From a virus (taxonomy: Duplodnaviria > Heunggongvirae > Uroviricota > Caudoviricetes): a DNA stretch of 9,665 nt. Within the stretch, counting starts at the first letter, position 1; each line of letters starts with the position of its first letter. Under the pieces are notes generated by a model. The model did not search any database and was not told the DNA's origin. It was given only the letters and a program-made list of their open reading frames with translations. A program made the position numbers and the translations under genes. The stretch spans positions 1 through 9,665 of IMG/VR virus record IMGVR_UViG_2681813316_000027. The stretch is one strand, 5' to 3'. Positions 6,092 to 8,231 of the stretch are shown here, in pieces.

Positions 6092-6418
6092 TCAAATAAG
6101 TGGTTTGCTGCCTAATTTCATTTTCTGGCGACCAACACAAGTCACCCCCATTTCACTGCGTGGCTTGCTGTACCATGTGCGCTGATTCTTGCGCTCAATA
6201 CGCTGCAGGTTGCTTTCAATCTGTTCGTGGTATTCAGCCAGCACTGTAAGGTCTATCGGATTTAGTGCGCTTTCTACTCGTGATTTCGGTTTGCGATTCA
6301 GCGAGAGAATAGGGCGGTTAACTGGTTTTGCGCTTACCCCAACCAACAGTGGATTTGCTGCTTTCCATTGAGCCTGTTTCTCTGCGCGACGTTCGCGGCG
6401 GCGTGTTTGTGCATCCAT
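6092..6418 (-). CDS. N: Antitermination protein N (108 aa), lambda type
   Basis: ORF track 6092..6418(-). MDAQTRRRERRAEKQAQWKAANPLLVGVSAKPVNRPILSLNRKPKSRVESALNPIDLTVLAEYH... matches my recollection of lambda N, including the arginine-rich boxB-binding motif; the C-terminal roughly 20 residues diverge. Ribosome-binding site CAGGAGAATCCAG then ATG. Confidence 0.9.
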   Translation of the reverse strand: MDAQTRRRERRAEKQAQWKAANPLLVGVSAKPVNRPILSLNRKPKSRVESALNPIDLTVLAEYHEQIESNLQRIERKNQRTWYSKPRSEMGVTCVGRQKMKLGSKPLI

Positions 6419-6686
6419 CTGGATTCTCCTGTCAGTTAGCTTTGGTGGTGTGGTGGCTGGTAGTCTAGCTCCAGCTTGTTGAGTCTCATTCGGAGGGGTA
6501 TAACCGGCACCCCAGCGATTTTTCCATGCGACAACGTGCGCGTTATGGCGGCCTTATCGCCCGCGGCTCCCCATCTCGTCCACGCTATTGCTAGCGTTGG
6601 GAGCGCTTCACCGCTCAACAGTAGGTAAGCACTTGCCAGTGACTAGCTGGCTTCACCACACCCCAAAGCCTTCTGCTTTGAATGCT
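6419..6686 (-). promoter_or_regulatory. N leader with long-range stem (probable RNase III processing structure) enclosing a GC-rich insert of about 215 nt
   Basis: In the minus-strand RNA, GGGGUGUGGUG (plus 6654-6664) can pair with CACCACACC within plus 6444-6456, about 200 nt apart. The two ends and the N ribosome-binding site match the lambda N leader as I recall it; the interior does not. Confidence 0.5.
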
Positions 6687-6717
6687 GCCCTTCTTCAGGG
6701 CTTAATTTTTAAGAGCC
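6687..6717 (-). promoter_or_regulatory. nutL: boxA (GGCTCTTAA) and boxB hairpin (GCCCTGAAGAAGGGC)
   Basis: Minus-strand reading GGCTCTTAAAAATTAAGCCCTGAAGAAGGGC. boxB at plus 6687-6701 and boxA at plus 6709-6717. Near-identical to lambda nutL as I recall it (CGCTCTTAA...GCCCTGAAGAAGGGC), with one change in boxA. Confidence 0.85.
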
Positions 6718-6761
6718 TCACCTTCATGGTGGTCAGTGCGTCCTGCTGATGGCTTAAAATT

Positions 6762-6829
6762 ACAAGAAAGATTGTATGTTGTAAACAAGAAATATTGTAA
6801 AAAGGGGCGTGAAAAACAAACTCCATTGT
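6762..6829 (-). promoter_or_regulatory. OL operators (three 434-type 14-bp sites) overlapping the pL promoter
   Basis: ACAAGAAAGATTGT (6762-6775), ACAAGAAATATTGT (6785-6798), ACAAACTCCATTGT (6816-6829). All fit the 434 repressor/Cro ACAA-N6-TTGT pattern. Candidate pL -35 TTTACA and -10 TAATTT lie on the minus strand within this block. The leftward transcript would reach nutL about 40-70 nt downstream. Confidence 0.8.
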
Positions 6830-6878
6830 TTTTAAATGAAAAATAGTTTGTTTTTGGTTATCGAGATTGAGGTGGGGA

Positions 6879-8231
<1,353 letters not shown>

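Follow-up and report, generated by a model that had tools for sequence, protein, structure and literature searches.

An unannotated allele of the lambdoid N-leader hairpin with an exchangeable apical domain, probably the counterpart of the RNase III-processed hairpin of lambda

The N leader of phage lambda is a textbook example of translation being repressed from a distance of 200 nt by an elongation complex tethered at nutL, with RNase III tuning the outcome. In lambda, N bound at nutL together with the Nus factors and the elongating polymerase represses the translation of N about 200 nt downstream. The structured leader brings nutL and the N start region together, and cutting by RNase III relieves the repression. 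The window (the whole stretch of 9665 nt that was analysed) contains an N leader whose ends resemble those of lambda and whose interior does not. The initial annotation described this interior as a GC-rich, non-lambda insert of about 215 nt within a conserved long-range stem, and considered either a structured RNA module or simply the native leader of phage 434. This raises the question of what the enclosed sequence is, and whether it is an element added to the leader of this genome or a part of the leader itself. The leader and its neighbourhood are laid out as follows.

6750, minus strand: equivalent of the pL transcript start
6710-6717, minus strand: nutL boxA, GGCTCTTA where lambda has CGCTCTTA (alignment to lambda)
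6687-6701, minus strand: nutL boxB, GCCCTGAAGAAGGGC, identical to lambda (alignment, and the expected hairpin in the fold)
6654-6675, minus strand: 5' strand of the long-range stem, CAG..GGCUUUGGGGUGUGGUG (MFE and centroid folds)
6440-6668, minus strand: portable hairpin module of 229 nt, stem plus core, CTTTGGGG...CCAAAG (three-way alignment)
6453-6656, minus strand: type B core, the non-lambda apical domain of 204 nt that replaces 94 nt of lambda (alignment)
6635-6651, minus strand: first core hairpin, GCCAG-CUAGUCA-CUGGC, 2 nt past the stem (folds)
6583-6596, minus strand: GNRA-capped hairpin, CGCUA-GCAA-UAGCG, the sole core element with covariation
6495-6513, minus strand: hairpin GGGGU-GCCGGUUAU-ACCCC (folds)
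6456-6475, minus strand: last core hairpin, GCUGG-AGCUAGACUA-CCAGC, abutting the 3' strand of the stem (folds)
6433-6455, minus strand: 3' strand of the long-range stem, CACCACACC-A-CCAAAGCU..CUG, with a bulged A (MFE and centroid folds)
6426-6430 and 6416-6418, minus strand: N Shine-Dalgarno sequence AGGAG and ATG start codon, both identical to lambda (alignment)
6092-6418, minus strand: N antiterminator gene, 108 aa, about 91% identical to lambda N (PHROG 'anti-termination protein N-like')

In the alignment of the minus strand, identity with lambda ran up to 6657 and resumed from 6452. The 204 nt in between and the 94 nt that lambda has at the same place could not be aligned with each other, which agrees with the initial description of the enclosed sequence as unlike lambda. 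The leader measures 332 nt here vs 222 nt in lambda. Relative to lambda the sequence has been replaced, at a net gain of about 110 nt, and has not simply received an insertion of 215 nt. On the pL transcript the segment lies between nutL and the N Shine-Dalgarno sequence, where a lambda-type N-leader hairpin is placed, and nutL and the N ribosome-binding site are indeed lambda-like, with boxB, Shine-Dalgarno sequence and ATG identical. The first base of boxA (6717) is variable: in the 49 of 51 cassette copies that cover the site it was G in 19, A in 12, C in 10 and T in 8. In these 49 copies the remaining boxA bases are conserved inside each nut type. The GC content is 0.565-0.575 across 6400-6699, falls to 0.37 on the side of pL and to about 0.39 past the end of N, and lies at about 0.49-0.53 within the N gene. 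The stretch is thus GC-rich against AT-rich surroundings, as was noticed initially; yet every one of the alternative cores found at this place, that of lambda included, has 51-59% GC, and GC-richness is therefore not special to the type B core. Further upstream, between the pL operators and a 210-aa CI-type repressor (7280-7912), a 158-aa ORF without assigned function (phrog_2651) was found on the minus strand at 6879-7355, at the position that rex has in lambda. Its true start is probably further downstream, because the listed ORF overlaps the repressor ORF by 76 nt.

The ends of the leader can still pair, as had been proposed. In the MFE and centroid folds GGGGUGUGGUG...CACCACACC pairs as the upper part of a 17-bp stem that contains a single bulged A and is continued below by CAG/CUG. 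The pairing of GCAG..GGCUUUGGGGUGUG(G)UG with CAC(C)ACACC-A-CCAAAGCU..CUG was found in the window leader and in the lambda leader alike. Both folds place the stem after the boxB hairpin, with a few nucleotides between its end and the Shine-Dalgarno sequence. Window and lambda agree in the lower 14 bp and in the bulged A, whereas the top reads GUGUGUG/CACACAC in lambda and GUGUGGUG/CACCACAC in the window, with changes that compensate each other. The lambda sequence GGCUUUGGGG / CC-A-CCAAAGC, which we take to be the mapped RNase III cleavage region of the lambda stem, is present in the long-range stem of the window. The lambda N-leader hairpin was reportedly described as an RNase III processing site by Steege in 1987, Kameyama in 1991 and Wilson in 1997 and 2002.

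Pairing was judged sequence by sequence among the relatives, the MAFFT alignment of the stem strands being too poor for the counting of pairs. All 17 distinct combinations of stem strands were able to pair, including several with wholly different stem sequences (e.g. GAGUAGCGCG/CGCGUUACUC, GGGAUUGGAUG/CAUCCAAUC-A-CC and GGCGGUGAUGUG/CGCAUCAC-A-GCC). Since every combination pairs, the comparative support for the long-range stem is strong, and the comparison shows that the predicted pairing is kept through compensatory change. The whole leader was also more stable than its dinucleotide shuffles (z = -3.97, with none of 100 shuffles as stable; the lambda leader gave z = -2.91). The 198-nt core alone gave z = -0.42 and the lambda core -0.25. 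This indicates that the stability of the whole leader stems from the long-range stem and not from the insert. A special thermodynamic stability of the type B core was accordingly rejected, the cores of other classes ranging from -2.4 to 0.0. The idea of a structured RNA module is thus strongly upheld for the enclosing stem and weakly for the core, which has no excess stability, no Rfam match and one covarying hairpin.

The extent of the exchangeable part was defined by a three-way alignment of the window, an H-19B-type N leader (L171) and the leader of a third N family (L246). The identical block begins at CTTTGGGG and ends exactly at CCAAAG in the comparison with L171, and L246 shares a further CTAACT. 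Outside this block of 229 nt the flanks are unrelated among the three leaders. According to this alignment, the unit of exchange is the whole hairpin (6440-6668). Among 51 IMG/VR copies the core (6453-6656) was polymorphic in 7 of 204 columns, with 0.0023 mismatches per site, whereas divergence reached 0.09 for the 5' leader and 0.165 for N. The flanks diverge far more than the core because 11-13 of the copies precede a different nutL/N type. Type B was found ahead of lambda-type N (MDAQTRRRER, about 53 copies), of H-19B-type N (MTRRTQFKGN, 10 copies) and of the third N family (MNAKQRCKLR, 4 copies), as well as ahead of small ORFs inserted before N. The core is still about 93% identical to copies that adjoin an N gene and an upstream leader which can no longer be aligned. 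Conversely, in 80 IMG/VR loci with near-identical N the interval from the conserved GCAGAAGGCTTTG to the conserved CAAAGCTAACTGACAGGAGAAT was filled by one of at least seven unrelated sequences. When the IMG/VR loci were taken together with scans based on the 5' strand of the stem and on a second N family, at least 34 unrelated cores of about 15-200 nt were counted in the same or equivalent N-leader stems. These comparisons show the whole hairpin as a mosaic cassette, which leaders exchange by recombining at the conserved stem or directly beside it. In the literature searched, no description of a hypervariable, portable apical domain was found.

Several arrangements of other leaders were recorded alongside. 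The mosaicism is nested: some classes share their first and last hairpins and differ inside, and the same pair of hairpins was found on two different basal stems (loci L004-L083 and L172-L303). In L145 (about 6600-7300) a type B and a type C hairpin follow each other in tandem, with a duplicate of the nutL-to-N-start junction between them; this junction leaves an ORF of six codons, MTRRAQ*, in which the N start is fused to the end of boxB. A small extra ORF between the leader hairpin and N, using the position of the N Shine-Dalgarno sequence, was seen in seven loci (L037, L074, L086, L140, L128, L147 and L142), with starts such as MNMKHNEHFM, MLDIMTNPIL and MTMNNEALKE. The third N family of L246 has an rrn-like boxA (TGCTCTTTAACAA), and its type B-like hairpin is preceded, from about -330 to 0 of the hairpin, by a further GC-rich stretch of leader, about 250 nt long, which contains the tiny ORF MVH*.

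Type B is not confined to the window. The 342-nt leader is 100% identical in Sf6 (where it is the leader of gene 37), HK633, HK446 and Sf101, and 98.8-99.7% identical in HK544, mEp043, mEp213, vB_EcoP-720R6 and Bas106; the 204-nt core is unchanged in HK544, mEp043 and mEp213 and is 100% identical in all 19 phage records that carry it. Phage 434 and lambda imm434, in contrast, match the flanks only (43% of the query, in two pieces), and the 434 leader is of the lambda type. The segment is thus not the native 434 leader. Neither is it an extra element in the sense of the initial annotation, because known lambdoid and P22-like leaders align with it end to end (those of Sf6, HK633, HK446 and Sf101 at 100%); it is a standing allele and not an addition to one genome. 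With blastn against phages, plasmids and E. coli genomes only copies of the core with at least 98% identity were found, always in a phage or prophage. At this identity 60 of 5426 complete E. coli genomes (about 1%) carry the core, at 69 places, mostly one per genome. Two of these places were inspected: one is an N leader, with the copy between a LexA-family repressor and N, and the other a deleted prophage remnant. The IMG/VR copies of the block were likewise all found in N leaders or in truncated prophage remnants. In two such remnants, L084 (E. coli P276M) and L322 (metagenome), the endpoint of a deletion or rearrangement falls inside the type B core. In the records of Sf6 and HK544 only pL and nutL are annotated and the hairpin and its core bear no feature. 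Both the allele and the regulatory hairpin to which it belongs are known, but the allele lacks annotation: it stands in many phage and prophage records without an Rfam family and is miscalled as a protein in at least one of them.

The predicted fold of the apical domain is a GC-rich, multi-branched structure of about 200 nt. The GGGGT...ACCCC hairpin that had been noticed from the letters is present in the folds, one base away from where it was first placed (6495-6513 and not 6494-6512). The loop sequence UAGUC of the first core hairpin is complementary to GACUA in the last one. Known RNAs were not recognized: Rfam 15 gave no match in the window at the gathering threshold, and at E values up to 10 chance hits only, the sole match in the window being 'algC', on boxB. 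ARAGORN found no tRNA or tmRNA in the window or in nine related loci, and the type B core has no GTTCGAnTC T-loop motif. The prophage anti-sRNAs AgvB and AsxR and the Pas sRNAs were rejected as candidates; they lie near PR'/Q and not in the N leader.

For a comparative test of the core a single diverged lineage was available, represented by L246/L281, L279/L295 and L313 (metagenome), with 13-16 substitutions in 229 nt; two IMG/VR scans, a scan with a second N protein and one metagenome scan otherwise returned random hits. The GNRA-capped hairpin reads CAUUA-GCAA-UAAUG in L246, where two compensatory pairs account for 4 of the 16 substitutions, and CGUUA-GUAA-UAACG, with one compensatory pair, in L279 and L313. 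The GNRA loop is retained in the L246 and L279 versions. The probability of at least two compensatory pairs arising by chance is 0.009 for this hairpin. The diverged copies also retain the stability of their own fold (own MFE, P = 0.037). The substitutions were no better than random at preserving the whole MFE structure (P ~0.26), and RNAalifold favoured a long-range alternative over the GNRA hairpin, an alternative that tolerates the changes through G-U pairs only. UAGUC and GACUA are untouched in the diverged copies although four neighbouring loop bases changed; in the loop of the last hairpin three bases differ in L246 and L279 and GACUA is kept. The hairpin at 6495-6513 is uninformative because it is invariant in these copies (its outermost pair is broken in one other copy, L077). 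Covariation and conserved loop pentamers hint at a specific fold, with the covariation in the core amounting to 2-3 pairs since there is a single diverged lineage.

Other classes of cassette carry elements that are more easily recognized. Canonical T-loop hairpins (GTTCGAnTC in a 5-bp stem) were observed in three independent classes, in four modules against 0.035 expected, a number that none of 2000 shuffles reached. They are found in L080 (about 1020-1163), L106, L203 and L178 (e.g. GCTGG-TTCGACT-CCAGC), and two of them sit directly against the 3' strand of the stem, like the T-arm of a tRNA on its acceptor stem. L080 has in addition a D-arm-like hairpin, GCTC-AACGGC-GAGC, two bases past the stem. 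Class G has a D-arm-like hairpin, and its sole covariance match was a 17-nt T-arm, with 5 bits. In the class with AATGCGCAGGCTGATGCGC (L022, L025, L188, L194, L228, L253, L268, L277 and L285) the first loop GGCUGAU is complementary to the last loop AGAUCAGCG over 5-6 bases. In a short class (71-72 nt) the last loop AGAUAAGCA is conserved on covarying stems (CCGUGG/UCACGG, GCCG/CGGC and CCAGA/UCUGG). Complementarity of at least 5 bp between first and last loops was found in 19% of self pairs vs 4.4% of cross pairs, with one homologous class dominating; these statistics are weak because many cassettes are homologous. Together the T-loops and the complementary loops suggest compact, elbow-like folds. 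The likeness to tRNA-like RNAs (tRNA, the tRNA-like domain of tmRNA and YrlA, which resembles bacterial Y RNA) extends to type B in its terminal stem made from the 5' and 3' ends, its hairpin 2 nt after the 5' strand, its hairpin abutting the 3' strand and the complementary loops of these two, and is underlined by the true GGTTCGAnTCC T-arm hairpins of the other classes. Type B differs in that it has no T-loop consensus, anticodon arm or CCA end and was negative with ARAGORN and Rfam.

Three known leaders can be set beside that of the window. The lambda N-leader hairpin shares with it the site between nutL and the Shine-Dalgarno sequence, the lower 14 bp with the bulged A, boxB, the ribosome-binding site and the general form of a long stem with a multi-branched top, and differs in its apical domain (94 nt, against 204 unrelated nt in type B). 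The leader of P22 gene 24, which was examined in L336 (the P22-like phage As3, 270-525), has a boxB, a long-range stem of about 17 bp, a three-way junction and an end about 20 nt before the start codon, whereas its stem and core sequences are unrelated to type B. A 96-nt RNA from the P22 gene 24 leader, P22B, accumulates in infected cells (PMC13397905). P22B maps to the P22 core and the 3' strand of the stem, starting 14 nt inside the core and ending after the 3' strand. These ends are not those of a clean cut across the stem, which means that P22B did not arise by simple RNase III cleavage there; its accumulation implies that processed leader fragments can persist. P22B lends indirect support to a possible processed small RNA embedded in the leader of the window, one of the options named initially. 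In the leader of rRNA operons a boxA/Nus complex is followed by a long-range RNase III stem that encloses the 16S rRNA (PMC4807359, PMC5725501). Both systems combine a boxA-tethered elongation complex with distant complementary strands that make up an RNase III substrate (a predicted one here) round a structured RNA. In the window, unlike the rRNA operon, the enclosed RNA has 200 nt and is not rRNA, and by analogy with lambda the output would be control of N translation.

We consider it probable that the segment is the type B allele of the RNase III-processed, N-autoregulatory leader hairpin of lambda, with a replaceable apical domain. The anatomy of the leader, the compensatory change in the stem and the portable nature of the block argue for this, as do the lack of any coding, promoter or known-RNA signature and the flanks (nutL, lower stem, Shine-Dalgarno sequence and ATG), which are identical or nearly identical to lambda. 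In lambda, N autoregulation involves nutL and a 'highly structured' intervening leader and is modulated by RNase III, according to PMC5725501 (citing Wilson 1997, 2002), and processing of the leader is attributed to Steege 1987 in PMC5371410. As all cis elements are intact in the type B allele, the same circuit would be expected to operate there, with RNase III cleavage and N autoregulation as deduced from lambda genetics. The stem would bring the nutL-bound complex of N, Nus factors and RNA polymerase near the N Shine-Dalgarno sequence, and N would thereby repress its own translation. Cutting of the stem by RNase III would remove nutL from the N mRNA and relieve the repression. The apical domain would mainly have to fold on itself, such that the strands of the stem meet and the ribosome-binding site is not mispaired. 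Self-folding as the main requirement would explain how unrelated cores substitute for each other, and replacement of the apical domain appears to be tolerated provided that the new sequence folds on itself. For a core that is a mere spacer, more drift might be expected than 0.0023 mismatches per site, and the T-loop hairpins in three other cassette classes are likewise a counterpoint. The interchangeable tops amount to natural swap experiments on whether the top of the hairpin matters for the regulation of N, and they raise a second question, whether the excised pieces are phage small RNAs in their own right.

The latter bears on an alternative that we regard as unlikely but give some weight, i.e. 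that the apical domain is itself a functional RNA. Excision by RNase III would then free a stable, structured RNA about 200-230 nt long with a function in trans, for instance that of a decoy, a sponge or a binding partner of a protein, and the many cores would be different payloads on which diversifying selection acts. The core hardly varies between one N or immunity context and another, as such a function would have it, but near-identity is also typical of recently exchanged segments of lambdoid mosaics. The covariation of the GNRA hairpin (P = 0.009) and the fold stability held by the diverged copies (P = 0.037) are in its favour; they derive from a single diverged lineage and 2-3 pairs, whereas the overall MFE structure is not preserved beyond chance and the core has neither excess thermodynamic stability (z = -0.42) nor an Rfam match. 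The conserved loop pentamers UAGUC/GACUA have an analogue in the GCUGAU/AUCAGC pair of another class, but loop complementarity exceeds the cross-pair controls mainly through one homologous class. T-loop hairpins are enriched in other classes, and P22B accumulates in infected cells (PMC13397905), but P22B has a different core and no assigned function. In a wider form of this reading the conserved stem would act as a frame on which any of a set of interchangeable structured RNAs can dock, each excised by RNase III and each with its own function in trans. We hold this to be rather improbable, and the same is our estimate for the cores being functional excised RNAs. Were it true, type B would be one payload that stayed near-invariant while moving between three N families, and the cores could serve e.g. 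as decoys or sponges against factors of the host or of rival phages; some of the at least 34 cores do carry tRNA-type T-arms or potentially kissing first and last hairpins.

Compared with these readings, which keep to the leader RNA, those that do not are very much less credible. That the segment is a small mobile element, MITE-like or cassette-like, inserted in the leader with the stem strands as terminal inverted repeats is very improbable. The block boundaries do coincide with an imperfect inverted repeat of 15-16 nt, and the block occurs in three unrelated leader contexts and, in L145, in a tandem of two cassettes. The 'repeats', however, are the conserved functional stem that lambda shares, the tandem is accounted for by a recombinational duplication of the interval from nutL to the N start, neither a transposase nor a duplicated target site was seen, and no dispersed copies were found among 5426 E. 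coli genomes, plasmids and phages (with two of the E. coli sites inspected). It is hardly conceivable that the 60-aa ORF within the segment (6436-6618, minus strand) is a small protein translated from the leader. Its frame is uninterrupted in the canonical copy and in the two diverged ones, and one phage record annotates it as a 'hypothetical protein'. Against this, it begins with TTG without a Shine-Dalgarno sequence, 11 of its 14 substitutions are non-synonymous (including the radical pairs LR->HE and EL->GK), a variant with a 1-nt deletion shifts its frame, PHROG has no matching family and most of it is base-paired in the predicted fold. Because of the substitution pattern, the frameshift variant, the missing Shine-Dalgarno sequence and the lack of a PHROG family, the ORF is very probably non-coding, as it had looked from the sequence alone. 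Equally remote from what was observed is an action of the segment as DNA or on the other strand, be it through an antisense transcript, by binding a protein or as a signal for recombination. Nothing specific points to it, except that the conserved sequences on either side could be recombination anchors. No promoter-like or terminator-like site was found in the insert on either strand, the sole terminator-like site being boxB on the opposite strand, and no repeats or known sites were noticed, nor a Chi site on reading the sequence. With no promoter or intrinsic terminator of its own, the segment does not qualify as an independent sRNA gene either.

One group of loci from the scans stands apart. 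Most hits of the scan of genome contigs with N were short contigs of low coverage assigned to Paenibacillus, Capnocytophaga, Desulfovibrio and others (L087-L102, L104, L105, L107 and others), carrying lambda N behind a lambda-type leader. The presence of lambda N on contigs of such unrelated species is most simply explained by contamination of the assemblies with lambda DNA.
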